This document shows positions 11,733 through 54,877 of a stretch of 64,000 nucleotides of DNA, piece after piece (positions within the stretch are counted from its first letter, which is position 1; every line of letters begins with the position of its first letter). Under the pieces are notes generated by a model, which was not told where the DNA came from, did not search any database, and was given only the letters and a program-made list of their open reading frames with translations. The stretch is from Minisyncoccota bacterium (GTDB lineage: Bacteria; Patescibacteriota; Minisyncoccia; UBA6257; 2-01-FULL-56-20), in NCBI GenBank assembly GCA_035509435.1, contig DATJLR010000007.1, positions 1,555-65,554 on the forward strand, given 5' to 3'. A program made the position numbers and the translations under genes.

Positions 11733-12074
11733 GCGCAGGCAAAGTAAAGGGCTTCGACGCGATCGTTCGCATCAAAGCCCTTAGGGGGTCTTGCACTTCA
11801 TCGTTCCGCCTTTCTCATCCATGTCTGGGGAACAGGATGGTTTTCTTTCCACTTGCGGATCTCTACGATCCGCCTCTCATCTGCCTCGAAATCCGGTCGC
11901 GGATCCGGCGTGGGCTGGGAGGCCACGCGCAGAAACCGAATCACCAGACCGGAGGCGGCGCAGACAACGATAAACAGATCTTCCTTCATGCCGACCGCCC
12001 TCCCGAGCGGGAGAACCACTGTTTCTAATATACCATATTGACTAAAATTGTCAAATTATGCATAATTTTTAACA

Positions 12075-13051: not shown

Positions 13052-13420
13052 TTATTTTCTGGCACCTCCTGCGGCCCAAGAGCCAGGGAGGTTGCGCCTT
13101 GAATAAGGATGGCTCATCATCCGCTGCCGCTCATCTTGTGCGGCGGTCGTGGCCGTGAAGATCCGCGTGGGACCATCATTTTCGGAAGAGGATTCGGTCC
13201 AATGCCGGATGATCGAAATCCATGTCAAGAGCGCGAACAGCCCCGGGATGATGATTATCGGCGACCAGACTACGATCCTGACGGTTAGCCACGAGTAATT
13301 GCGTTCCGCCATCCAGCTCGGTTCCGGCGCGCTAGAAAAATAGCATGCCATGGCGACCGAAGCGCAGATAACGATCAGAGTGACAAAGACAAGGCGGATA
13401 GGGGTGATTTTCGGGAACAC
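13052..13420 (-). CDS. Hypothetical small membrane protein
   Basis: 122 aa with 2-3 hydrophobic helices; no homology recognised. Confidence 0.3.
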   Translation of the reverse strand: MFPKITPIRLVFVTLIVICASVAMACYFSSAPEPSWMAERNYSWLTVRIVVWSPIIIIPGLFALLTWISIIRHWTESSSENDGPTRIFTATTAAQDERQRMMSHPYSRRNLPGSWAAGGARK

Positions 13421-20319: not shown

Positions 20320-20394
20320 GGGCTGGTGGTGAAATGGTATCACAGCCTTCTTGCCAGATGGCAGTTCGGGGTTCGATTCTCCGCCAGTCCACCA
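20320..20394 (+). tRNA. tRNA-like gene, Gly(GCC)-like anticodon loop, encoded 3' CCA, irregular anticodon stem
   Basis: Acceptor GGGCTGG/CCAGTCC (one G-U), D arm GTGA-AATGGTA-TCAC, T arm CGGGG-TTCGATT-CTCCG, discriminator A then CCA. The anticodon region GCCTTCTTGCCAGATGGC has loop TTGCCAG (anticodon GCC), but the stem pairs only as G-C, C-G, C-G, TxT, T-A with an 8-nt loop. Confidence 0.55.
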
Positions 20395-20477
20395 TTGATA
20401 CCGAATTGACATCCATAAATACGCGCGTATCATGGATAATGATCTGGCAAGAAGGCGCGGTGCCTTTCACCGTGCAG

Positions 20478-20517
20478 AAAATAAAAAAGGCCCACTGCGG
20501 GCCTTTTTTATTTTCCG
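20478..20517. terminator. Bidirectional intrinsic terminator (ggccc-actgc-gggcc flanked by A6/T6)
   Basis: aaaataaaaaaggcccactgcgggccttttttatttt lies 13 nt past the rpsF stop (minus) and downstream of the tRNA-like gene (plus). Confidence 0.8.
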
Positions 20518-20527
20518 AAACTTTTTA

Positions 20528-31942: not shown

Positions 31943-32066
31943 CTTTGATGTCGGCACATCCTACTTTCCCCGCCCGAAGGCAAGTATCATGGGATTGGGA
32001 CGCTTTCACTTCTCTGTTCGGAATGGGAAGAGGTGGGACACGCCCGAATGAAGCACCGACATCAAA
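31943..32066 (-). rRNA. rrf: 5S rRNA
   Basis: Reverse complement contains CCCATTCCGAACAGAGAAGTGAAAG and paired ends tttgatgtcggtgc / gcaccgacatcaaa. Ends +/-5 nt. Confidence 0.85.
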
Positions 32067-32075
32067 AAGCCGTTC

Positions 32076-32153
32076 GTGCCGCTGCTCTTGCATTCTTTTT
32101 TGCACCACACAGCGGACGGGTGGTTCCAAAAAAGAATGCAAGAGCAGCGGCAC
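32076..32153. repeat. Perfect 26-bp hairpin in the 23S-5S spacer with 26-nt loop containing GGACGG (H1)
   Basis: gtgccgctgctcttgcattctttttt-[gcaccacacagcggacgggtggttcc]-aaaaaagaatgcaagagcagcggcac. Confidence 0.7.
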
Positions 32154-32324
32154 TCACTACTTTGTTGATCTCTGGTTGTAGATCAGAAATGATAATGCAA
32201 GTCAGCATTGGGATGGTTGGCGGGATCATTAGTACGTCTTGGCTAAAGCCGTTGCCAGCCTTACACCGAACGCCTATCAACGTCATAGTCTATGACGAGA
32301 TCACGCATACCTAATCTTGGGGTG

Positions 32325-32499: not shown

Positions 32500-33268
32500 C
32501 AATTTCTTCTTCTATCGCCATTACTGGCGGGTTGGACTATACCACCATCTCCACTGAGATGATCGACGTGTTAGTCCGGCATGATTGCCGGACTCCAGCT
32601 CGTAATGAGCTAAGTCTCTAAGGGGTCAATGCATGATATTTCCGCTTTTTTGAATAATTCAGAAAGCGAAAACGTTCTACTAATTCTGCCAACGCTCGAA
32701 AATCATCTTTACTTTGAATTTTCGATTTAGCATCGAGGATTTGGACCATCAGATCGGCTTGCTCACCTTTCAGTATCAGGAACCCACGAACTTCGCCGAG
32801 AAACGATCTGATCGCCTCTTCGCGCGCGATGGTATATTCGATCATGCCATCATTGCGTTCGCGGATATATCCCAAGTTAATAAGCGAACAAATTTCTTCA
32901 AATTTGCGCTGATCTTTTTTGGATTGGAAAAGCACGATGCAAGGAGCTATTTGAAATCCATATCGATAAGTCGAGTTAGATTTCATCCTTACATAGATAC
33001 TCCCATCTCCATCCAGAAATCCTGCTATGTATGCTTTTTGCGTTGACGAAAGACTTTTCATACACGACTTCCCTCGGTATTATCCTACGATCTCACGTCT
33101 CATCAAACTAGTTTTTAATCTATTTTTAATAAGCGTTACGATACATCCCAGGTCAGGATGTTAGGACTTCACCGATATGAGTCGATTTTGCTATCTCGAT
33201 CGCTCGAGAAAGCCGCCGTTTTTGTTTTAACAGTTTTTGATGTACCTTCGATCGGGTTATCTTCGTTG
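32500..33268 (-). mobile_element. Group I intron at 23S position equivalent to E. coli U2593 (I-CreI site)
   Basis: 5' exon ends ...GGGTTCAGACCGT and 3' exon resumes CGTGAGACAGGTCGG. The intron begins CAACGAAG and ends ...AATTG (omega-G). It is ~770 nt and includes a LAGLIDADG ORF. Confidence 0.75.
32618..33061 (-). CDS. LAGLIDADG homing endonuclease (single-motif, I-CreI-like)
   Basis: 147 aa; IAGFLDGDGSIYV motif; encoded inside the 2593 intron. Confidence 0.85.
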   Translation of the reverse strand: MKSLSSTQKAYIAGFLDGDGSIYVRMKSNSTYRYGFQIAPCIVLFQSKKDQRKFEEICSLINLGYIRERNDGMIEYTIAREEAIRSFLGEVRGFLILKGEQADLMVQILDAKSKIQSKDDFRALAELVERFRFLNYSKKRKYHALTP

Positions 33269-34269
33269 ACGGTCTGAACCCAGCTCACGTGCCACTTTAA
33301 TTGGCGAACAGCCAAACGCTTGGGAGCTTCTACACCCCCGCGCTGTGGCGAGCCGACATCGAGGTGCCGAGCATTGTCGTCGCTAGGGACGCTCGGACAA
33401 TACTAGCCTGTTATCCCCGGAGTAGCTTTTATCCGGTGTCTCCGGCCTTTCTATTAAGAAGCCGTCGGGTCACTAACTTCTGCTTTCGCACCTGCTCGTC
33501 TTGTATGACTCGCAGTCAAGCCAGCTTTTGCGTTTGCACGTCCTGCCCGATTTCCATCCGGGCTAAGCTAACCTTAATAAACTCCTCCGTTACTCTTTTG
33601 GAGGAAAACGCCCCATTTAAACTGCCTACCAAGCACTGTCTTAGCGGAGTTTCCCCGAAGGGTTCTCCGCCAGTTAGACGTCAAAATTCTGAAAATGGCT
33701 GTTTCATTGTCGGATCCACGTCACCCGAAAGCGACGCTTCAAATCCTCGCCACTACACTACGTAACAGAACTCTGAAATCAATACCAAGCTGCAGTAAAG
33801 CTTCCGGGGTCTTTTCGTCCCGCTGCAGGTATCCCGCGTCTTCACGGGAATCGCATTTTCACCGAGCTCATCGTTGAGACAGTTCTCCGGTCGTTACACC
33901 TTTCGTGCGCTTCGGAACTTACCCGAAAAGGAATTGCGCTCAAACATGTTACAACACTTTTTGTTGGCCAAAACATTTCTGCTTGGCTCTCTGTGTCGCC
34001 ACAGAGTTCGGACTATATCTTATCGCCTTGCGGCGATCCTAACGTGTAGTCTCTGAGGATCCTTCAAAAGAAGTTTCCTGCTGATTTTCCGCATCGATCA
34101 AAGATTGTTACCTTGCGGTACTTTGATATGCGCGGGTGTTCCAGCATATAGTTAGGTTTTACTAAGGCAATGCAATCACCTTAGAACGATTCTTTTACGT
34201 TATCACCCGCTCGTTTTTTAATTTAAGCGGGATCCTCATGGTCGCCCATGAGATCGGACTATATCATCT

Positions 34270-34827
34270 CTAAAAACTTTTAGAGTCTGGCGTATAGTCT
34301 CTGAGGATTCCTTGATAGTCTATTTCTACGTCTATTACGTTGTATTTACGCCTTCTTCCTCTTCCCTCATTTAAATTTTCCCTGATAGCGATAATTTCTT
34401 GCAGTCCTTTTGGATCAAGGTGTTTGCCTTGCTCCATAAGAAATGCAATTTGTTTGAACAGGAGAAAATTTTTCTTTTTTGATGAAGAAAAGAAAGGAAA
34501 CTTTTCGAAAAACGGTATGACGCGATCAATGATCGAACGATAATCGCCGACGACGAAGTAATGCACTCCGTCTTCACGATTTTGCAATCGTCCGCAACCT
34601 AAATGACTTTTTAATAATTCCAAATTGGCGATATCGCGCTGGGCCACGTTAAAGGTCATTTGCACCTGCCATCCAAGGCGATGCCCATTCCCTTTTCGAA
34701 GAGAGACATTAAAACTTCCCTCTCCATCCGTAAAACCAGAAAGATACCAGCCAATGTTGTCTGGAATTTTCTCAAGCCATTCACGGTTATACCAAGGCCT
34801 TTCCTGCTGATTGTCTGCACCGATCAT
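34270..34827 (-). CDS. LAGLIDADG homing endonuclease (single-motif)
   Basis: 185 aa; LSGFTDGEGSFNVS motif. Confidence 0.85.
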   Translation of the reverse strand: MIGADNQQERPWYNREWLEKIPDNIGWYLSGFTDGEGSFNVSLRKGNGHRLGWQVQMTFNVAQRDIANLELLKSHLGCGRLQNREDGVHYFVVGDYRSIIDRVIPFFEKFPFFSSSKKKNFLLFKQIAFLMEQGKHLDPKGLQEIIAIRENLNEGRGRRRKYNVIDVEIDYQGILRDYTPDSKSF

Positions 34828-34991
34828 ATTGTCACGCTAGCACATCAACATTAAATCTTTATTAAAAAGATTTCATGATGAGCAACGTAATGTCGGATTC
34901 TCAGAGTTTCCAGCATTTGGCCAGATTTTATAACTACAATCGTTATGTCTATAGTTATCGCTGACATTGACGAGGGCTTGAATCAGTGAGC

Positions 34992-35080
34992 CTCCTGGTA
35001 ACTAATTGCTAGTAACTCGGTAACCTAGCAAGAAAAATCTTGCTAGTTACCAAGGTTTACTAGTAACCAGTGACCAGGAG
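34992..35080. repeat. Imperfect ~40-bp-stem hairpin built from GTTAC(C/T)AG / CTAGTAAC words at the 5' edge of the domain-IV insertion (replaces the helix-68-like hairpin)
   Basis: ctcctggtaactaattgctagtaactcggtaacctagcaag-aaaaatc-ttgctagttaccaaggtttactagtaaccagtgaccaggag. Confidence 0.7.
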
Positions 35081-35723
35081 ACCCCCAATCTTGACCTTCT
35101 CGCATCGGTCAGGTGTCACCCCCTATACATCCTGTTGCCAGTTAGCAGGGAGCTGTGTTTTTGGTAAACAGTCGCCAGAGATTCTTTAGCTGCGGCCCCG
35201 CCCGCATTGCTGCGGAAAGGGCAGGCCTTATTGCTAACTTACGGCCGCTATTTTGCCTAGTTCCTTAACGATGAATCACTCGTTCCCCTTGGGCTACTCG
35301 CCCTATACACCAGTGTCGGTTTCCGGTACGGAGACCACACGCTCGATTTGGCCAAATTTTTCTCGAACGGCTCTTCACAAACGTCGGCCAGGTAAATTCC
35401 TGACCTTCTCTCGGCGCGCGCTTGAACTCCGCGCAAAGAATGCCAAACCGATAAGGCACGCCTGCTTATATCCGTTGTCCTTTGGTTATGATCGTGCGGC
35501 CGGGCTGGAATATTAACCAGCTTCCCATCGACTGCCCCTTTCGGGATCGCCTTAGGACCGCCTAACCCGTGGTTGATTGCCAGTGCCACGGAAACCTTGT
35601 ATTTTCGGGGTTCCAATTTCTCATTGGGATTGTGGTTACTCATTCCAACATTTTCTCTTCCGGCCGCTCCAAACGCCCTCGCGGGTCGATCTTCACTGCA
35701 GGCCGAAATGCTCTCCTACCACT

Positions 35724-35762
35724 ACTGGTAACTGATTACTAGTTGCTAGTAAACCTAGTAGA
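35724..35762. repeat. IVS 3'-flank motif block, complementary to 36163..36204 (RNase III-type stem of the 23S IVS)
   Basis: ctggtaactgattactagttgctagtaaacctagtag; reverse complement of the 5'-flank block is ctggtaactgattactggtaactaggaactagtaacaag. Confidence 0.7.
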
Positions 35763-36113
35763 TTTTTCAATGCTTTTTGTAAGATTGGTCAATTCTTTGC
35801 CGACGATCGCGTATTGCTCGGAAAGGAATTTGTATTGTTCATCGGAAAGTAACTCCACTTTCCGCATGAATTCAAGATTGAACGCTATTTCATCCGCTGA
35901 TCCCAAGGAATCTTTCAGATGATTGATCGTGTCCTTCTTTGATTTCTTCCGTGCGAACCCTTCCGCGATGTTTGAGGGAATTGAACGTGAGGCCCGCCGT
36001 ATTTGATCGGCAAGCTCCAGTTTATATTCCTTCGGCAATGAAAGAGATATTTTATGAACCTTTATTGCAAGTTCGAACGATCTTTTGAACACATCAAGAT
36101 CTTTGTATATCAT
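35739..36113 (-). CDS. 23S rRNA intervening-sequence protein (four-helix-bundle, TIGR02436-like)
   Basis: 124 aa; FELAIKVHKISLSLPKEYKLELADQIRRASRSIPSNIAEGFARK. Sits at a helix-45-like position (~E. coli 1170-1200) flanked by complementary motif blocks. Confidence 0.8.
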   Translation of the reverse strand: MIYKDLDVFKRSFELAIKVHKISLSLPKEYKLELADQIRRASRSIPSNIAEGFARKKSKKDTINHLKDSLGSADEIAFNLEFMRKVELLSDEQYKFLSEQYAIVGKELTNLTKSIEKSTRFTSN

Positions 36114-36162
36114 CCTTCCATTGAACCATTTCTCGCATTAACTCTTTCTTAAATCTTTTCCT

Positions 36163-36204
36163 TGTTACTAGTTCCTAGTTACCAGTAATCAGTTACCAGT
36201 AATC
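36163..36204. repeat. IVS 5'-flank motif block (partner of 35724..35762)
   Basis: cttgttactagttcctagttaccagtaatcagttaccagtaatccg. Confidence 0.7.
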
Positions 36205-37050
36205 CGTATCTTCGGTACCATGCTTAGCCCCGGTACATTTTCGGCGCCACGACCCGTCGAATAGTGAGTTGTTACACACTCTTTAAAGGATGGCTACCTC
36301 TAAGCCAACCTCCTATCTGTCTATGGGTCATGACTACCTTTTACACTTAGCATGGATTTAGGGACCTTAGATGACGATCTGGGCTCTTCCCCTCGCGACC
36401 ACGGAGCTTAGCCCCCGCAGTCTAACTAGCAAGATCTTGACTCTCGGTATTCGGAGTTTGATTGATCGTTCGGTCTTTCGACCTGTAACGATCATCCAGT
36501 GCTCTACCCCCAAGAGGAACTCTTGCCGCCAGTCCTAAAACTGTTTCGGAGAGAACCAGCTATTACGTTATTCGATTAGCTTTTCACTCCTTACCTCAGC
36601 TCATCCGAAGATTTTGAACAATCAACCGGTTCGGGCCTCCCTCCCGATTTCTCGGGAGTTCACCCTGGCCAAGGCAAGCTCATAACGCTTCGGGTCTATC
36701 TTGTGCTGCGATCCCACTCAAATTTTTGGAGCCGTGACAAATCCACGGCGATGCGGTATTTTTATGATTAGCTTCTCCTCCACGGGAGGCCGTATGTTCT
36801 CAGGACACAGCCCCGATCCCATGCTTCAGGGCCTCACTTCCTTTCTCATGGAAGCAAACCCGATTGCCTGGGGAGTGCTTGCCGTCGGTGTCGCATTGCT
36901 TATCGTGGCCATTTGGAGCATGCACCACGAAAACAAAACCCCGACCTGCAAGTGACCAATCTGCCAAAACACCTGCCCGCTCACGCGCGCGGGTGTTTTC
37001 TTTTGGCGCTCACGCGCCGCTTATTTCTCCAAAAATTTGAGTGGGATGTG

Positions 37051-37081
<31 letters not shown>

Positions 37082-37244
37082 TCACGCTATGCGCGCTTAG
37101 ACAAGCAACACAAAATAAGTCGTTGGATCATTCTTCAATAGGCACATTGTTCCACTCGTCCGCGGATTGCTCCGCAGCCGTTCGTGGTTCAATTCCTTGT
37201 AGACAAACGGTTTCAGGTTCTATTTCAACGGCCTCACCGGCCTG

Positions 37245-37281
<37 letters not shown>

Positions 37282-38230
37282 ATCTAGAAAAGTATTTAGC
37301 CTTACCTGATAGTACAGGTGTATTCCTCCGGAACTGTTTTACTCCGAAGTACTCAAGTTAAAAAACTAAGGAGACCAAAAGTTTTCGTCTACGGGGCTAT
37401 CACCCGCTCTGGCGCCGCTTTCCAGACGGCTTCGACTAACCAATGATTTTTTTACTCCTCCACCTCCCAGCGAGTAACGCAACGTACACTTGCGTGCGCG
37501 CTACGTTACTTGCTAAAAGAGCGTTTTTTACTGAACCCCAAGATCGTGATAAATCACAACCTTAGTTTGGGCTCCTCCCCGTTCTCTCGCCGATACTTAG
37601 GGAATAACTGATTTGTTCTATTTTCCTCCGCTTACTGGAATGTTTTACTTCAGCGGGTACGCGATCCGCTTGCGCGGAACAATTGAGGGTTACTCAACTA
37701 GGTTTCCCCATTCGGAAATTCCCGGATCACAGGTTGCTACGCACCTCCCCGAGACATATCGTTGCTACGCCACGTCCTTCATCGCCTTTTCTAGTCTAGG
37801 CATCCACCGTTCGCCCTTATTTGCCAACCATCCCAATGCTGACTTGCTCGTGGATCACAGCGAAACGCCGCAATCCACTTGCCATCAGTAAGAAAAATTC
37901 TTACCGATGCTTTGACCCTGTCCGTCACGAGAAATTGACTACATATGCGTATGCAGCGATCCGGCCCACCCGCAATGCGGATGTTAGCGACCGGACCTAA
38001 TAGTGACACAGGGTCTCCATATTATGTCCTCCGACTCTACAATTCGGAGTTCCGCCAAATCGGCGAATGATTTGAAATAGCATTTGCTCAGCATCGCGAG
38101 ACGCTGCAAGACACGGACCGCCAAGAAAAAAATCAGCCGCACACAGCGGCCGCTGACTGCTTCAAAGAAGCGGCTTCAGCCGGAGTGTTGTGAGAGATTT
38201 AAAGTCTTGACCATTCGTATCTTGAGGATA

Positions 38231-38276: not shown

Positions 38277-38351
38277 ATAAAAAGCAAACCCCTCCTTGTT
38301 GAGCGAGTGGACGTTCCTACGTCGGAGCGAAACAAGGAGGGGTTTGCTTTT
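38277..38351. repeat. Long hairpin with 30-nt loop containing GGACG (H2), 5 nt from the tRNA-Pro 3' end
   Basis: aaaagcaaacccctccttgtt-[gagcgagtggacgttcctacgtcggagcga]-aacaaggaggggtttgctttt; acts as a terminator for the tRNA. Confidence 0.7.
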
Positions 38352-38356
38352 TATTG

Positions 38357-40553: not shown

Positions 40554-40781
40554 CGGTTTTTCGGCAGGTATACGTTCATTGTAATTGAATTGCGGGAATT
40601 ATTGTATAACATACCAGCCCACCACAAAACAGGGACACGAGCCATTGAAGACGGCTGGCGGATACTTCGTTCGTTCCCGCGGCGACGGCCGCGCGAGAGC
40701 GATCCTCCCCGGCCCACGGATGGGCGTCCTTTATAGTGCAGTGAGTGACTCAAAAACAGAATATGGATCAGATGACAAAAA

Positions 40782-40825
40782 GAAAGCCGGGCGCACCAGA
40801 GCGCGCCCGGCTTTCTTTTATTACT
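40782..40825. terminator. Bidirectional intrinsic terminator after pheS
   Basis: aaaagaaagccgggcgcaccagagcgcgcccggctttcttttatt. Confidence 0.75.
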
Positions 40826-40834
40826 GCCCCGACC

Positions 40835-42013
40835 CTATCGGACCGTCGCGCCGAACTCTTTCACCGTTCCCTCTTCTATCTTCTTGTGCAGGACGTCCAC
40901 TTCGTCGTTCGTGAGCGTGCGGTCGCTCGATCGGTACGTAATGCGGTATGCGTAGCTCTTTTTGTCCGCGCCGAACTTTTCGGCGTTCTCATATTCGTCG
41001 ATCAGCTCCACCTGCTCCACGAGGTCTCCCGCGATGTCGCGCACGAGATCGAAATAATCGTTCGGCGCGAACGCCTTCGGCACGATGAACGAGATGTCGC
41101 GGATGACGGGCGGATACTTGCTCACCTCCGCGAACTTCGTTCCCATGTGCAGCTGTTTCTTTACGCGCTCGTCATCGGACCAGAGCAGGCGGATGTCCGG
41201 GAGCGTCATGCTGATGATCGCGAGGCGCTCCAACCCGAAGCCGAACGCCCACGCGTTGTACCCTTCGACGCCGAACTTTTTGAACACGCTTTGCTTTGTC
41301 ATGCCACCGCCGAGTATCTCGATCCAGCGGCCGCCGTCCGGCCCCGGGTCGTCGGATGATTCGGTCGTGGGCGCGCCGGGCCCGATCCATACCTCCACCT
41401 GCAGCGATGGGTCCGTGTACGGGAATGTGTCGTCGAGAAAACGGAAGTGGGCGCCGGCGCCGAAGATCGCGCGCACGATCTCGCTCAAAGCGTTGCGCAG
41501 GTCGTCGATCGTGAGTGGGTCGGTGTCCGCGGGCGTCATATACCATCCGCCGAACTGGTGGAAGATGTTCATATGCTTGCGGTCGATCTCGTCCTTGCGA
41601 TACACCTTGCCGTAACAGACAACGCCCAATTTTTCGCGGCGCGCGAGGCGCTCTTTGACCTCCGGCAGCTGCGTGTAGTAATACCACATCACGGTGTCGT
41701 GCGTGCGCAAAATATTCTTATCGTCCGCATAGTAGGTGTCCGACGCGCTGCGTGCCGGATGGTCGGGCGCGAAGTCAAAAAGGTCGAAGTTGATCGATGC
41801 CGGCACGATCTCCGGGATGATGATGTTGTCAAAATCCTTCAGTACCGGCGTCGCGCGTGCCGCTTCCACGATCTCGTAGAGCGGGCTGCCCGGCGTGCGC
41901 GAAAGGTCGGGCATCGCAAGGTAGCGCTTGATCCGCGCGGCCTCGGCGTCCGTGCGCTTGTCGACCGCGGCCAGTATCCTGTTCTGCTCGTCAAGGGAAA
42001 TGCGATATTCCAT
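40835..42013 (-). CDS. pheS: Phenylalanyl-tRNA synthetase alpha subunit (no adjacent pheT)
   Basis: Class II motifs; FGLERLAIISMTLPDIRLLWSDDERV (motif 3). Confidence 0.85.
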   Translation of the reverse strand: MEYRISLDEQNRILAAVDKRTDAEAARIKRYLAMPDLSRTPGSPLYEIVEAARATPVLKDFDNIIIPEIVPASINFDLFDFAPDHPARSASDTYYADDKNILRTHDTVMWYYYTQLPEVKERLARREKLGVVCYGKVYRKDEIDRKHMNIFHQFGGWYMTPADTDPLTIDDLRNALSEIVRAIFGAGAHFRFLDDTFPYTDPSLQVEVWIGPGAPTTESSDDPGPDGGRWIEILGGGMTKQSVFKKFGVEGYNAWAFGFGLERLAIISMTLPDIRLLWSDDERVKKQLHMGTKFAEVSKYPPVIRDISFIVPKAFAPNDYFDLVRDIAGDLVEQVELIDEYENAEKFGADKKSYAYRITYRSSDRTLTNDEVDVLHKKIEEGTVKEFGATVR

Positions 42014-42073: not shown

Positions 42074-42916
42074 ATGCCACATCAAGGAGGCCCATTCGTG
42101 AAGACGTCGACATTTACCTGCATACTGTCCCTTGCATTGCTCGCGGTGCCGTTCGCGGATGCCGCCTCGCACGCAAAGCGCGCCACTCTCACTCCGTTCC
42201 GCGAACGCGCGGCGCGGGAAACACTGATCAAAGATCGCATCGTTCACAAGTTCGGCCACGCGTTCGCCGATCCGATCGTGAACGATCCGCGCCTCGTCCT
42301 TCCGCAACCCGCGCCGTCGGCGGCCAAACCTTCGCACCACGCGAACCGGCACGACTACCGCTACATGTTCACCGCCGACGCGCTGGCCACGGGCCGGAAA
42401 TTCCTGGAAGAGAACAAAACGCTGTTCGCCGAGAACGAAGCAGCCCATGGAATTCCCAGTCCGATCATCAATGCGCTTCTTGGCATCGAGTTGGGATGGG
42501 GAAACGTAAAGCCAAAACGGTTGGTGATCGTCTCGCTTTACTCGCTCGCCGTCAACCGTCCCAACTATGTCAGCCGCGGATGGCCGGAGGAACAATTGAT
42601 GGCATGGCTCACCATCTGCAAGAATAACGGCTGGGATCCGTTCGCCATGACGGGTTCCTGGACCGGCGCATTCGGGCTGGACCAGGAAGAGCCGACGACG
42701 TACCTGCAGTTCGCGAAAAATTGCGTTTCGGAAGGAAACTATTCCGATCCATTTTCCGCGAGGGACGCTGTCTGTCGGATCACCAACTACCTCGGCAACG
42801 CCGGGTTCGGAGAAACCAGATCTTCGATCCTCAAAGCGCTCTGGGAGTACAACCACGATCCCGCTTACGGGCGAGCCATCATGGAGTACGCTTCCATCGT
42901 TAAGCCATTGCCGTAA
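42074..42916 (+). CDS. Lytic murein transglycosylase B-like (SLT domain 2)
   Basis: Signal peptide; MTGSWTGAFGLDQEEP matches the MltB signature (TGSWAGAMGQTQF). Confidence 0.7.
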   Translation: MPHQGGPFVKTSTFTCILSLALLAVPFADAASHAKRATLTPFRERAARETLIKDRIVHKFGHAFADPIVNDPRLVLPQPAPSAAKPSHHANRHDYRYMFTADALATGRKFLEENKTLFAENEAAHGIPSPIINALLGIELGWGNVKPKRLVIVSLYSLAVNRPNYVSRGWPEEQLMAWLTICKNNGWDPFAMTGSWTGAFGLDQEEPTTYLQFAKNCVSEGNYSDPFSARDAVCRITNYLGNAGFGETRSSILKALWEYNHDPAYGRAIMEYASIVKPLP

Positions 42917-42961
42917 CAGAACAGGCCGCTATCACATAGCGGCCTGCAGTTCTATCATTCG

Positions 42962-43034
42962 GCACAAAAGAAAACAGGCAGGTCCGCCGGACGGTCATCT
43001 GCCTGGAGGCGAACCTGCCTGTTTTCTTTTGCGC
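42962..43034. repeat. Palindromic element H3 with conserved 28-nt loop CCGCCGGACGGTCATCTGCCTGGAGGCG, 8 nt from the tRNA-Met 3' end
   Basis: gcacaaaagaaaacaggcaggt-[ccgccggacggtcatctgcctggaggcga]-acctgcctgttttcttttgcgcc; homologous to H4 in both stem and loop. Confidence 0.75.
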
Positions 43035-43041
43035 CTTGTTG

Positions 43042-43114
43042 TGCCGACGGGAGGAATCGAACCTCCGACCTTGGCCTTATGAAAGCCCTGCTCTAACCGC
43101 TGAGCTACGTCGGC
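43042..43114 (-). tRNA. tRNA-Met (anticodon CAT; elongator or Ile2-type)
   Basis: Acceptor GCCGACG/CGTCGGC, D arm GCTC-AGCGGTTA-GAGC, anticodon loop TTCATAA, T arm GTCGGAGG-TTCGATT-CCTCC... 1:72 is paired, so not initiator-type. Confidence 0.8.
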
Positions 43115-43174
43115 AACGGCATAACTATATTATAGAGCGGGAACTTTTTCAAAGGCCGATCGGACACCGCCGCG

Positions 43175-48080: not shown

Positions 48081-49067
48081 ATGGCAGGGATGAAGTCGCC
48101 AAATTCACCCTTGATGTATGCACGACGACGACGCGCGAACAAAAAATGGCTGTGGGTGGCAGTTGCAGCCATCACTTGCCTGATTGTGCTATGCGGCTGG
48201 TGGGCTTTCGCCCGATCGCCAGCGTCCCCGTCTGCGAATACGCCGCCCGGCACGCTCGCGTGGCCGTCGTTCGGACAGGCCGCCGTCGGCATCGTTGGCA
48301 CGAGCACGATCCAAACATACGGCGATCAAACGCCAGTGCCGACGGCGAGTACCGCAAAAATGATCACCGCTCTCGTGGTGCTCCAAGCCAAACCGCTCTC
48401 GCCCGGCCAAACCGGTCCGATGCTTACCATGTCGCGCGATGACCTTGTCTTATTGAAAACCTACGCCGCCCTTGATGGCTCGAGAATCACCAAAATGGGG
48501 GTCGGCGAACAGCTGAGCGAGTATCAGATGCTGGAAGCCATGATGCTACCCTCCGCCGACAATGCAGCCGACAGCCTGGCCATCTGGGCGTATGGCTCGC
48601 TGCCCGCATACAGCGCAGCTGCCAACAGTTATCTGGCCGGTTTGGGCTTAAGCGGCACGCATGTGGGAACCGACGCGAGCGGCCTTGACCCGAGCACGGT
48701 AAGCACCGCGCACGACATGGTGCTCATCGGCGAACTTGTTATGCAGAATCCTGTGCTTGCGGAAATTGTTGGGGAGCAAAGTGTCAGCGGGTTTCCCTTG
48801 GTAGGCACCATTACCAACACGAACAGCTTGCTTGGCCAGGACGGGATCGTCGGCGTGAAGACCGGCAATAGCGACGAGCAGAGCGGCGCTTATGTGGCGG
48901 CCGCGGATGCCACTGTGAACGGAAAAACTGAAACCATCGTAACGGCAGTACTTGATGCGCCGAGCCTCGACGACGCCATGGATGCCAGCGTGCCGTTGAT
49001 AAAGAGCACCAGGTTTGGCTCTTTATCAAAATCCCGACCTAAAGCCACTCAGGATGTTTCTCTTTAA
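48081..49067 (+). CDS. D-alanyl-D-alanine carboxypeptidase (S11, PBP5-like)
   Basis: TM/signal; STAKMIT (SxxK), SADN (SxN), KTG-like region. Confidence 0.75.
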   Translation: MAGMKSPNSPLMYARRRRANKKWLWVAVAAITCLIVLCGWWAFARSPASPSANTPPGTLAWPSFGQAAVGIVGTSTIQTYGDQTPVPTASTAKMITALVVLQAKPLSPGQTGPMLTMSRDDLVLLKTYAALDGSRITKMGVGEQLSEYQMLEAMMLPSADNAADSLAIWAYGSLPAYSAAANSYLAGLGLSGTHVGTDASGLDPSTVSTAHDMVLIGELVMQNPVLAEIVGEQSVSGFPLVGTITNTNSLLGQDGIVGVKTGNSDEQSGAYVAAADATVNGKTETIVTAVLDAPSLDDAMDASVPLIKSTRFGSLSKSRPKATQDVSL

Positions 49068-49395
49068 TCGAATTAAACCATTCAGCACCAATGATATCTT
49101 CAAGGCTATAATCTTTAAACTCTTTTGATTGAGAGAGGTCGATGACATCTTTTTCGTCTACATAGACCTTGCATTCCCCGCTTGATTCCACGTCACGAAT
49201 TTCTCCTGGGAAAATTTGCAGGTTGATCTTGTTATTCTTGTGTCTCATATAAAAGAGCCAAATTTTTTGGCCGTTATGTAATGGCCCATATTTATCAACT
49301 AGCTTCTTAATCCAAATTTGATTACGTAATGAGAAATGTCCATCAGCATAGTCGTTCCAATCCCCATTGATAAATACTTGTTTCCCTGATTTCAT
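49039..49395 (-). CDS. Hypothetical protein in AT-rich island (candidate immunity/accessory)
   Basis: 118 aa; local GC roughly 38% versus ~60% for the flanks. Confidence 0.4.
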   Translation of the reverse strand: MKSGKQVFINGDWNDYADGHFSLRNQIWIKKLVDKYGPLHNGQKIWLFYMRHKNNKINLQIFPGEIRDVESSGECKVYVDEKDVIDLSQSKEFKDYSLEDIIGAEWFNSIKEKHPEWL

Positions 49396-49401
49396 GTTTT
49401 T

Positions 49402-49773
49402 TTAGCACTTAGAAAGCTCGAATTTCCCTACGTTCTCTTTAAAAGAATTGCCGTAAGCATATAGTTCGATTTGGGTAATACGGCCGTCCTTTCCCCATAA
49501 TACCGATCCGCCTCCATCATCGATATCCTGAGATTTTATTTCTGGTCCATCAAGCGGCCATCCTTTTTTTCTTAATTTATTTATATCAACAAGGTTCGCG
49601 TCCGAAGAAACGTCGAGCTTTATATAAAATCCCGTTTTAGTCCATTTTCGCTCTTTCAATTTAGCAGTATTTATTTGCACGGAAAGATTCTCGTCTTTAT
49701 AGCGTTGGGCGAACCATTGCAAAATAGCCTTTTCTAAACTATTCAACTGAACTTTGCTTGAAGATGATTCCAT
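49402..49773 (-). CDS. Hypothetical protein in AT-rich island (candidate immunity protein)
   Basis: 123-aa ORF in the same low-GC block, tightly spaced. Confidence 0.4.
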   Translation of the reverse strand: MESSSSKVQLNSLEKAILQWFAQRYKDENLSVQINTAKLKERKWTKTGFYIKLDVSSDANLVDINKLRKKGWPLDGPEIKSQDIDDGGGSVLWGKDGRITQIELYAYGNSFKENVGKFELSKC

Positions 49774-49787
49774 TCAAACTGGCGACG

Positions 49788-50108
49788 CTAAACTTGCTTC
49801 TTCTGTTTACTGTCATAAACAAATTCATAAGCGATATCCCCTTCCTTGTGCTGCTCAAAGAAATCCTTTGCTTTTTGGTAAGAAATTTCAAAACTATCAT
49901 CGGAATAGTCAGCAGAGTAATCTTGATCGATTTGGATCGCCCGAGGAGAAACATTTTTAAGTAAATGAAATCCATCGAAACCGAGTAAGCGCAAGTTGTT
50001 TTCTCTCAATAGACCAAGAAACACTACTGCGTCCTTCCTGTTGAGGAGAGTCGCATTATCGTAGGGTTTTAGTCTGTGTTCGGATAGGAATTGTTGTATT
50101 TTGTCCAT
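49788..50108 (-). CDS. Hypothetical protein in AT-rich island (candidate immunity protein)
   Basis: 106 aa; directly downstream of the toxin-like gene. Confidence 0.4.
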   Translation of the reverse strand: MDKIQQFLSEHRLKPYDNATLLNRKDAVVFLGLLRENNLRLLGFDGFHLLKNVSPRAIQIDQDYSADYSDDSFEISYQKAKDFFEQHKEGDIAYEFVYDSKQKKQV

Positions 50109-50120
50109 GGCTTTAATATA

Positions 50121-50729
50121 TCACTCAAATGGAAAGATTTCATCTGGAACTATGATGCCTGGTTCTTCCGGAACGACCTCCGGAATATATGGATCTTGAA
50201 TGGAAGAATCGGGATACCATTCAGGATCATTTTTGTTGGATACTTGAATTACTTGTTTAGTCACATTATCAACGGAAACATAGTTCCCCTGCTCATCATA
50301 ATACGCGGTCGCTGGATTGCCATTTGCCTTATTCGCTGCAGCGCGCGTGGTGAAGGGATTTCCATAAAGCTTGTCTATGTCTTGCTGAGTCCAACCGCGA
50401 CCCTCCATTTGATTGGATATTTTTTCTGGGATTACAGGACCGCTACCCCCTCCACCAGACCCTCCCGAAGTCACCAAACTTCCATACCCACCAATAGATA
50501 TCCACGGCGATCCCGTTCCACCCTGCCCTCCTCCAGCTGGCGTATTAACACCAACATTGTTCAGATTAGAAGGATTGCCTGCTTTGCCAATATTCGTAGA
50601 ACCAACATTATTTCCCTGACCCGGATTACTCATTGACCCTCCTGTTGTAGCGGCTAATTGCCCCAAGCTATTAACTATGGATTGCAAACTATTCACTATT
50701 TGCTGTAGTGAAGCGATAATAGATTTCAA
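50121..50729 (-). CDS. Gly/Asn-rich secreted protein with conserved C-terminal toxin-like domain (polymorphic-toxin-like)
   Basis: 202 aa; N-terminal LQQIVNSLQSIVNSLGQLAATTGG, Gly-rich linker, C-terminal GWTQQDIDKLYGNPFTTRAA...ATAYYDEQGNYVSVDNVTKQVIQVS, followed by three small ORFs. Confidence 0.45.
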   Translation of the reverse strand: MKSIIASLQQIVNSLQSIVNSLGQLAATTGGSMSNPGQGNNVGSTNIGKAGNPSNLNNVGVNTPAGGGQGGTGSPWISIGGYGSLVTSGGSGGGGSGPVIPEKISNQMEGRGWTQQDIDKLYGNPFTTRAAANKANGNPATAYYDEQGNYVSVDNVTKQVIQVSNKNDPEWYPDSSIQDPYIPEVVPEEPGIIVPDEIFPFE

Positions 50730-51027
50730 ATCTTTTCCGCTCGGATCTTTCTTGGTAATGGGATTATCATCGGAATACGAATACGCATTCTAAGCTGCCT
50801 TTCATCCCGAATACAACAAACCGAGGCCTCTCGGTCTTAAAAGAATCTACCTTGGCTGTTGCGGGGGCAAGACTCGGACTTGCTTCGGAAGCTTATGGGG
50901 CTTCCCGGAAAACCTTTCCCAACCCTCCCGCGCGATGATGCCTGCGCGGGCATTGAGGGCTCACGCATGCATCGCTGTCCTGTGCATTATATAAATTTTC
51001 TGGCGTGATTGTCAAAAGAACGGATTA

Positions 51028-54266: not shown

Positions 54267-54823
54267 CCACGTCGTCCGCGGCACAGGCGCTCCAGCAGTT
54301 CCAATCCTCCACGCAGGCCGTGAGCCAGAATTTTCTTGCTACCTACTTCGCGCATCTTGGCCTTCTGGAATTTTTTGGCCTCCTGATCGCCGTCGCGGCA
54401 TTCGGCGCCGTCATCTATATCGGCATCGAGACCGGCTACTTTTCCCTGCGCACCAGCCACTTCCGCCACATCATCCTGCAATCGAACATGTCGAAGCACG
54501 AGGCGCAGGAGTCCTGGCATAAGATCCAGGAACATTTCTATCGCGGCAGTGACAGCGACCTCAAGATCGCGATCCTCGAAGCGGACAAATTATTGAACGA
54601 AGCGCTGCGCGAAGCGGGCATCATGGGGATCCAGCTCGGCGACCGGCTCAAGAAAGCGACGGCGGCGCAGGTGCCGAACCTGAACGAGCTCTGGCAGGCG
54701 CACAAGCTGCGCAACCAGATCGCGCACGAGCCGAACTTCAAGCTCAAGCGCGACCTTGCCGAGCGGGCGCTCGGCATCTACGAGGAGACCCTCCGCAACC
54801 TTGGCGTCCTCGACGGCCATTAA
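54263..54823 (+). CDS. Hypothetical membrane protein
   Basis: 186 aa; start overlaps the gatA stop (ATGA); one TM segment. Confidence 0.4.
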   Translation: MTTSSAAQALQQFQSSTQAVSQNFLATYFAHLGLLEFFGLLIAVAAFGAVIYIGIETGYFSLRTSHFRHIILQSNMSKHEAQESWHKIQEHFYRGSDSDLKIAILEADKLLNEALREAGIMGIQLGDRLKKATAAQVPNLNELWQAHKLRNQIAHEPNFKLKRDLAERALGIYEETLRNLGVLDGH

Positions 54824-54831
54824 TTCGAAAC

Positions 54832-54870
54832 AAAAACTCCCTCTGTCAAGCGAGACAGAGGGAGTTTTTG
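54832..54870. terminator. Bidirectional intrinsic terminator
   Basis: aaaaactccctctgtcaagcgagacagagggagtttttgttt. Confidence 0.8.
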
Positions 54871-54877
54871 TTTCAGT

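Follow-up and report, generated by a model that had tools for sequence, protein, structure and literature searches.

Gene surroundings of the two hairpins

The window (the whole 64-kb stretch of DNA that was analyzed, with a GC content near 58%) carries two long hairpins, H3 (42961 to 43035, minus strand) and H4 (56786 to 56864, minus strand). They share a core, CCGCCGGACGGTCATCTGCCTGGAGGCG, which occurs exactly twice in the whole window (42984 to 43011 and 56811 to 56838), both times on the plus strand. A first-pass annotation had reported this core as identical in the two hairpins, which is correct, and its hairpin coordinates agree to within 1 nt with the inverted-repeat arms determined here: 28 nt in H3 (42961 to 42988 and 43008 to 43035) and 30 nt in H4 (56786 to 56815 and 56835 to 56864), 93% complementary in each case. 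No further match to the core was present in the window with up to three mismatches allowed, and none arose in 100 shuffles (0 expected by chance).

H3 begins 6 nt past the 3' end of the tRNA-Met(CAT) gene (43041 to 43114, minus strand), which had been annotated at this place before and was called here by ARAGORN and by the Rfam tRNA model (68.3 bits); no CCA is encoded. Just upstream of the tRNA is a promoter-like site, TTGAAA-17-TATAGT (43124 to 43152, minus strand; a consensus match only). Since tRNA-Met has this promoter-like site of its own, promoter, tRNA, and H3 would form one small transcription unit. A gene for an SLT_2 lytic transglycosylase (42074 to 42916, plus strand) is convergent with tRNA-Met, its stop codon lying 45 nt from H3. 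Between that stop codon and H3 is a small 11-bp hairpin, CAGGCCGCTAT cac ATAGCGGCCTG (42922 to 42946), the stem of which is kept in L003, a contig from a relative.

H4 has minus-strand genes on both sides and sits between a low-GC variable segment and a 288-aa gene without a Pfam match (55895 to 56761, minus strand). The ATG of the 288-aa gene is 25 nt beyond H4, and an extended −10-like element, TGGTATACT (56768 to 56776, minus strand), is located 10 nt beyond H4 and six bases ahead of this ATG; the element is also kept in L003. With a −10-like element at that distance, the mRNA of the 288-aa gene looks leaderless. For both H4 and a hairpin copy in contig L010 (described below), TGGTATA(C/A)T follows within about 10 nt downstream, with an ATG after it. 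The element stands 6 to 7 nt before the starts of the genes behind these hairpins (window, 56768 to 56776, minus strand; L010, about 13388 to 13396, plus strand), a spacing that suggests that this lineage uses extended −10 promoters and has leaderless mRNAs.

The variable segment (56865 to 58580) spans from H4 to tRNA-Asp and contains an ASCH N-terminal fragment (56938 to 57048, plus strand), an ASCH C-terminal-like ORF (57326 to 57499, minus strand), and a GNAT gene (57496 to 58473, minus strand); its low GC content and the ASCH fragments had been noted beside H4 before. L003 carries unrelated sequence at this place, and the segment looks like a tRNA-Asp-linked variable or integration spot. 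H4 itself is without an orthologue in L003 (13889 to 13960), where homology ends just before the hairpin and the flank is rearranged too. The earlier suggestion that the hairpins mark island borders is not supported: only H4 abuts a variable segment, and the other copies described below lie between conserved housekeeping genes. Elsewhere in the window, a low-GC stretch at 49001 to 51000 (0.38 to 0.46, versus about 0.58 elsewhere) is possibly acquired DNA.

Terminator-like anatomy and the apical module

By inverted repeat, RNA fold, and covariance model (CM) score, H3 is a 75-nt hairpin with a 28-bp stem and H4 a 79-nt hairpin with a 30-bp stem, each with a 19-nt loop (42989 to 43007 and 56816 to 56834, respectively) that reads GGACGGTCATCTGCCTGGA on the plus strand. 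Together with the CGCC/GGCG closing pairs, the loop makes up an apical module that matches exactly between the two hairpins (42985 to 43011 in H3 and 56812 to 56838 in H4, both minus strand); on the tRNA strand, the H3 module is CGCC-UCCAGGCAGAUGACCGUCC-GGCG. What had been described as an invariant 28-nt loop is thus an exactly shared sequence as claimed, but the true loop is 19 nt, and the rest, including the CGCC/GGCG pairs, continues the stem. Folding energies were −56.2 kcal/mol (z −9.6) for the minus strand and −50 kcal/mol (z −8.3) for the plus strand of H3, and −50.4 kcal/mol (z −8.8) and −50.7 kcal/mol (z −8.0), respectively, for H4.

In both hairpins, and on both strands, the 5' arm is A-rich, the 3' arm is T-rich (U-rich in RNA), and the inner stem is GC-rich; because the A-rich 5' arm and the T-rich 3' arm flank a GC-rich inner stem, H3 and H4 give the same reading on either strand. 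H3 can be written for either strand as ...CAGGCAGGTYCGCC[loop]GGCGRACCTGCCTG-TTTTCTTTTG (also ...CCTGCCTG-TTTTCTTTTG), and H4 can be written as ...TTTTTATTTCTTG. Flanking by A and T is the known signature of hairpins that act as bidirectional terminators (PMC1852404). In bidirectional intrinsic terminators, as in H3 and H4, a GC-rich hairpin is bordered by an A-tract on one side and by its complementary T-tract on the other, and it stands either where two genes converge or where a promoter follows the end of a gene (PMC1852404). The A-rich stems of H3 and H4, previously taken to be homologous, are just such A- and T-tracts, a general feature of bidirectional terminators (PMC1852404). On anatomy and position, it is highly probable that H3 and H4 serve as terminators, in which the GC-rich lower stem and the UUUUCUUUU or UUUUUAUUU behind it would halt RNA polymerase coming from either side.

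H3 and H4 differ from other bidirectional intrinsic terminators in having a 19-nt loop of conserved sequence instead of 3 to 8 arbitrary nucleotides, and their stems are far longer than needed. The 19-nt loop lies outside the usual range for a terminator loop (about 3 to 8 nt), and because of this loop limit a consensus scanner does not call the full hairpins. Three other A/T-flanked hairpins of like build in the window have ordinary small loops (20473 to 20519, 40775 to 40822, and 54818 to 54883). The first of these plain terminators follows a feature that ARAGORN lists as "tRNA-???" (20320 to 20394, plus strand), which has a two-base anticodon and was not called a tRNA by Rfam. A CM scan of the whole window with filters off returned H3 and H4 only, at 71 bits each (71.1 for H4); the next matches, at no more than 28 bits, were plain terminators.

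The first-pass annotation had also proposed that the loop partly competes with the outer stem, as in a riboswitch or attenuator. The plus-strand loop does contain CTGCCTGG, complementary to CAGGCAGG in the H3 stem, but this complementarity is specific to H3 and is absent from H4 and from the relatives' copies L002, L010, L029, L032, and L052, whose stems differ. No competing fold was predicted for H3 or H4, the minimum-energy and centroid structures both being the single long hairpin, and across the copies there is one hairpin each, of −38 to −56 kcal/mol, which the ccgcc/ggcgg pairing only lengthens. The elements stand at 3' ends rather than in 5' leaders, and there was no Rfam riboswitch match. 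A switch of this kind was rejected because of folding and position, and we put its likelihood close to nil.

A family of tip-bearing hairpins in relatives

In metagenome contigs, an exact 21-mer search gave one real third copy, behind rplS in contig L002. The sole exact match in genome contigs (L001) was due to chance, lying inside a Planctomycete coding region and without a stem. Copies beyond the exact matches were found on contigs of relatives fetched via flanking proteins (synteny). NCBI assigns homologues of the neighboring single-chain PheRS and of L19 to Candidatus Paceibacterota, Minisyncoccia, or Patescibacteria; together with the long, intron-bearing 23S rRNA gene that lacks an adjacent 16S (described below), these names place the window in a CPR bacterium. 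The PheRS of the window (40835 to 42013, minus strand) is a single 392-aa chain with tRNA-synt_2d and FDX-ACB domains and has more than 6,000 close relatives in metagenomes, named Paceibacterota or Patescibacteria. In all, nine distinct sequences of the shared tip, termed type A, were collected; they represent six independent loci and come from at least five related genomes of Candidatus Paceibacterota.

Type A tips occur 3' of tRNA-Met, tRNA-Pro, rplS, rpmE, and a 329-aa gene. An H3 orthologue (L003a in L003) is present between SLT_2 and tRNA-Met in L003 and L007, with 13 of 19 loop positions the same, identical closing pairs, and an unrelated stem; the neighboring SLT_2 protein in a species with the hairpin at the same site is only 64% identical. 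L003 has a second copy (L003b, 11920 to 11977), with an 18-nt loop, which abuts the stop codon of the 329-aa gene. Contigs L010 to L014 carry a copy directly behind tRNA-Pro, followed in L010 by a co-directional gene. Orthologues of the L002 copy were found behind rplS in L029 to L031, L052, and L053, and another copy was found behind rpmE in L032, L034, and L035; the hairpins abut the stop codons of rplS (L002, L029, and L052) and rpmE (L032). The hairpins thus stand at the 3' ends of transcription units, and beyond them is the promoter-like element of the next gene or a convergent gene.

A covariance model (R1) built from seven sequences, with L003b held out, recovered L003b at 52 bits and new copies at 53 to 62 bits, compared with no more than 28 bits for the plain terminators of the window. 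No type A tip was found in the fetched regions of L020 to L028, where PheRS is about 84 to 85% identical, or of the L042 to L051 group. Judged from nine sequences, the phylogenetic range of the type A tip looks narrow. The element had been called novel, in keeping with Rfam 15, which at the gathering threshold has no match at the H3 and H4 sites. Permissive Rfam scans returned only generic long-hairpin matches (miRNA precursors, and Plastid-psbJ-1 at 44.7 bits versus a cutoff of 62) that score nearly equally on both strands. A search of the literature for terminators of CPR bacteria and for terminator loops of conserved sequence brought up nothing relevant.

Between copies, identity is 81% in the loop and 84 to 89% in the closing pairs but 32 to 33% in mid-stem, and these values are the same for orthologous and nonorthologous pairs. 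Stem cells are nevertheless paired in 97% of cases, versus 34 to 48% in slid controls, with changes on both sides in 11 of 16 pairs; 0 of 500 shuffles reached the observed values. The copies have stems of 23 to 30 bp and energies of −38 to −56 kcal/mol (z −7 to −10). The first-pass annotation had posited an element family, and what emerged is a genuine one with covariation, nine sequences at six loci rather than two copies only, in which 11 of 16 stem pairs are doubly changed.

Among the three identities offered earlier for the element, a protein-binding terminator comes closest. MITE-like mobility is not supported, as the arms are about 32% identical between copies, no target-site duplication was seen (no direct repeats flank H3, H4, or L002), and H3 has its orthologue at the same site. 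REP/BIME elements, MITE-like elements, and uptake-sequence terminators resemble the tip family in being palindromic and intergenic, often between convergent genes, and in that they can double as terminators. They differ in that their arms are conserved across many near-identical copies, whereas in the tip family the arms are unrelated (about 32%), the tip is shared, and the density is low.

Written in the direction of the tRNA or ribosomal-protein gene, the 27-nt tip consensus is (C/U)GCC-UYC-NN-G-[C/A]A[G/A]AUGA-Y-N-G-UYC-GGC(G/A). Two inner pairs were predicted independently by RNAalifold: G6-Y14 and N5-N15, the latter present as GC, CG, and UA and also as two mismatches. The terminator apex may therefore fold into a mini-hairpin, and its predicted shape is probably a 3x3 (to 4x4) pyrimidine internal loop, a 2- to 3-bp mini-helix, and a CAGAUGA heptaloop. 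With the inner helix paired in only 77% of cases, support for this helix is modest. Two other readings of the tip were tried and discarded. A small ORF starting at the loop AUG would have the stem as its frame, with neither length nor sequence conserved and with the start buried atop a stem of −38 to −56 kcal/mol. Mimicry of a K-turn, a box C/D motif, or an anticodon loop by CAGAUGA was rejected by eye, the GA/GA spacing and U33 being absent.

Turnover, orientation, and possible function of the tip

A second tip is found on the hairpin directly 3' of tRNA-Pro in the window (38277 to 38354, minus strand), a 24-bp A/T-flanked hairpin that precedes the promoter-like site of the 23S rRNA gene and bears a different conserved 30-nt tip, UCGCUCCGACGUAGGAACGUCCACUCGCUC (type B). 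At the 3' end of tRNA-Pro, type B occurs in the window and in L003 (1060 to 1123), type A occurs in L010, and a third, branched tip occurs in L022. At the 3' end of tRNA-Met, type A occurs in the window and in L003, and type B occurs in L022 to L025 (about 8880 to 8960 in L022). Behind rpmE, L032 has type A, and L030 has a plain CACAA loop on a recognizably similar basal stem; behind rplS, L002, L029, and L052 have type A, and L032 and L043 have small loops. The 3' end of the 322/329-aa gene bears a plain loop in the window and a type A tip in L003: the plain A/T-flanked terminator at 54818 to 54883 (minus strand; 6-nt loop) has the tip-bearing L003b as its counterpart at the same locus. On comparison of these orthologous loci, the tip behaves as a unit that is gained, lost, or swapped, and the module is dispensable, because in some relatives the hairpins at these loci end in a plain loop or a different tip.

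DNA-level copying of the tip is the main rival to a function in RNA. On that account, the tip would be a selfish or passively copied DNA cassette without an RNA function of its own, spread by ectopic gene conversion between terminators with similar A/T tracts or by hairpin-tip-specific insertion. The modules of H3, H4, and L002 are identical at 27 of 27 nt on unrelated stems, while their orthologues differ at 3 to 6 loop positions, which could mean DNA-level copying rather than selection. Copying would also accommodate the dispensability of the module, the occurrence of type A, type B, or no module at the same locus depending on the species, and the placement of H4 against a variable segment and without an L003 orthologue. 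However, 11 of the 19 loop positions are invariant among the nine family sequences, across species, and variation is limited to the same few positions, a pattern that looks like purifying selection. The two copies of L003 differ mutually at 5 positions, so there is no within-genome homogenization there. There is also no transposase-like footprint, target duplication, or set of conserved ends, and other replicons yielded no copies (a degenerate tip pattern gave 0 matches in viral contigs, and blastn against phages and plasmids gave none).

Orientation bears on the same question: the tip is asymmetric, and its orientation therefore carries information. Only two contexts, L010 (tRNA-Pro with a co-directional gene) and H4, receive gene input from one strand alone, and in both the tip reads in the sense direction of that strand. 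Relative to the tRNA, the tip has the same orientation at all three tRNA-linked loci, and type B is likewise constant (at tRNA-Pro in the window and in L003 and at tRNA-Met in L022). Where genes converge, the tip lies in sense to the tRNA, rplS, or rpmE, although the assignment of "sense" there is post hoc. Within the bounds of a small sample that includes these post hoc cases, the constant orientation relative to the tRNA or upstream gene favors an RNA-level role of the tip on tRNA and ribosomal-protein transcripts and counts against passive copying, which we regard as unlikely. An asymmetry of G.U versus A.C pairs in the stem was also considered as a strand signal; it was promising in H3 (two G.U, minus strand) but disappeared across the copies (6 versus 4 in the putative sense orientation).

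A signal acting at the DNA level, such as an uptake sequence in terminators (as in Neisseria and Pasteurellaceae) or the site of a DNA-binding protein, was considered as another reading. Natural competence is believed to be widespread among CPR bacteria, which counts for such a signal. Uptake signals are often built into terminator hairpins; they number about 1,000 or more per genome and usually occur as inverted pairs that form the terminator stem (PMC1852404). The 64-kb window has only two copies of the tip; conservation is in a nonpalindromic loop rather than a stem, core 10-mers are scarce away from the hairpins (4 in the window), and the tip keeps a fixed orientation with respect to transcription. 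An uptake sequence was rejected because of density, loop position, and fixed orientation, and the chance that the tip is a DNA-level signal of any such kind is very slight.

An RNA-level role could also be played in trans, with the released 3' trailer of the tRNA or mRNA acting as a small RNA or sponge and the pyrimidine-rich tip (GCCUCC...) pairing, for example, with a Shine-Dalgarno-like GGAGG. H3 would be the trailer of an independently transcribed tRNA and so should be abundant, the trailer position holds for H3, L003a, and L010, and CCUCC is present in the tip of most copies. A precedent is the 3'ETS-leuZ of E. coli, the trailer of the glyW-cysT-leuZ tRNAs including the terminator, which pairs with RyhB and which, like H3, is a tRNA gene trailer that includes a terminator hairpin (PMC6191717). 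3'ETS-leuZ, however, is a single locus with a single-stranded pairing region, whereas the tip family is a conserved hairpin tip reused at the ends of tRNA and protein genes. The fact that protein-coding genes also precede copies weighs against a trailer RNA, as do the two of five CCUCC bases that are locked in closing pairs. No complementary stretch of at least 11 nt was found in the 64-kb window, including 23S, 5S, and the tRNAs, and the 10-mers found (4) are too few for a target. In addition, the variable loop positions differ between the two L003 copies, against a single shared pairing partner. A trans-acting role is distinctly improbable.

The iron-responsive element, the histone mRNA 3' stem-loop, and phage boxB are protein-binding hairpins whose loop is conserved and whose stem is free in sequence. 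They share with the tip family a constraint on the loop and its closing pairs, a stem that varies but stays paired, and occurrence on several unrelated transcripts; the histone stem-loop also shares the 3'-end location. Lineage, sequence, and host structure (a terminator in the tip family) differ, and a binding protein is known only for the established elements; the likeness is a functional analogy only. Because a constrained loop, a free but paired stem, and occurrence on several transcripts together form the pattern of protein-recognized hairpins, a recognition site is the reading we prefer.

Our main interpretation, to which we assign a rough probability of 0.55, is that H3 and H4 are bidirectional intrinsic terminators with a conserved 27-nt apical module that is probably a candidate protein or RNase recognition site. 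After termination, the 3' trailer of the tRNA or mRNA would display the tip module, which would most likely be read by a lineage-specific RNA-binding protein or RNase deciding 3'-end fate, whether processing, protection, or decay, as the conservation pattern suggests. Comparison of orthologous loci shows that, over evolution, the module is gained, lost, or exchanged as a unit at terminator tips.

We place the type A hairpins among the intrinsic terminators, which they match in every respect examined except loop size, as a probable terminator family of a CPR subclade whose apical RNA motif is conserved and exchangeable; the motif itself is solidly real and undescribed. A more far-reaching version is doubtful: the tip could be a portable "terminator-tip cassette," a sequence-specific RNA handle of at least two interchangeable types (A and B) that a Paceibacterota subclade sets on the terminators of tRNA and ribosomal-protein genes, read by a dedicated protein or RNase for 3'-end maturation or turnover, and spread by a hairpin-tip-directed DNA process. 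We know of no regulon mark on terminator loops described in bacteria.

CPR/Patescibacteria are uncultured and have reduced genomes, and to our knowledge almost nothing is known of how their transcripts end or how their RNA 3' ends are processed. What is unusual here is that the loop of a terminator, not its stem, is under sequence constraint and that this loop is reused behind tRNA and ribosomal-protein genes and swapped with a second tip type at the same loci. The pattern suggests that the terminators of this clade bear additional information, which is probably a signal for binding or processing. Should this be confirmed, the tip could serve, as bait RNA and as a covariance model, in finding an RNA-binding factor specific to the lineage, and annotation would gain a new class of RNA motif; should the tip prove to be no more than a copied DNA cassette, it would nonetheless exemplify sequence exchange specific to hairpin tips.

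Other features of the window were recorded alongside the hairpins. The 23S rRNA gene (33157 to 37830, minus strand) is 4.67 kb long, versus 2.9 kb for the model, and contains a group I intron (33989 to 34187) and other insertions; the GC content of the region is 0.41 at 34 to 35 kb, and no 16S gene is adjacent. Upstream of it are tRNA-Pro and a TTGACA-17-TATCCT site. Between the 23S and 5S rRNA genes, a hairpin of 31 to 37 bp (32066 to 32163) has CGGACGG within its 24-nt loop; it may be a processing stem. In L010, a 187-aa truncated second PheRS copy (6577 to 7140) adjoins a Virulence_RhuM gene and lies 3 kb upstream of the full PheRS.
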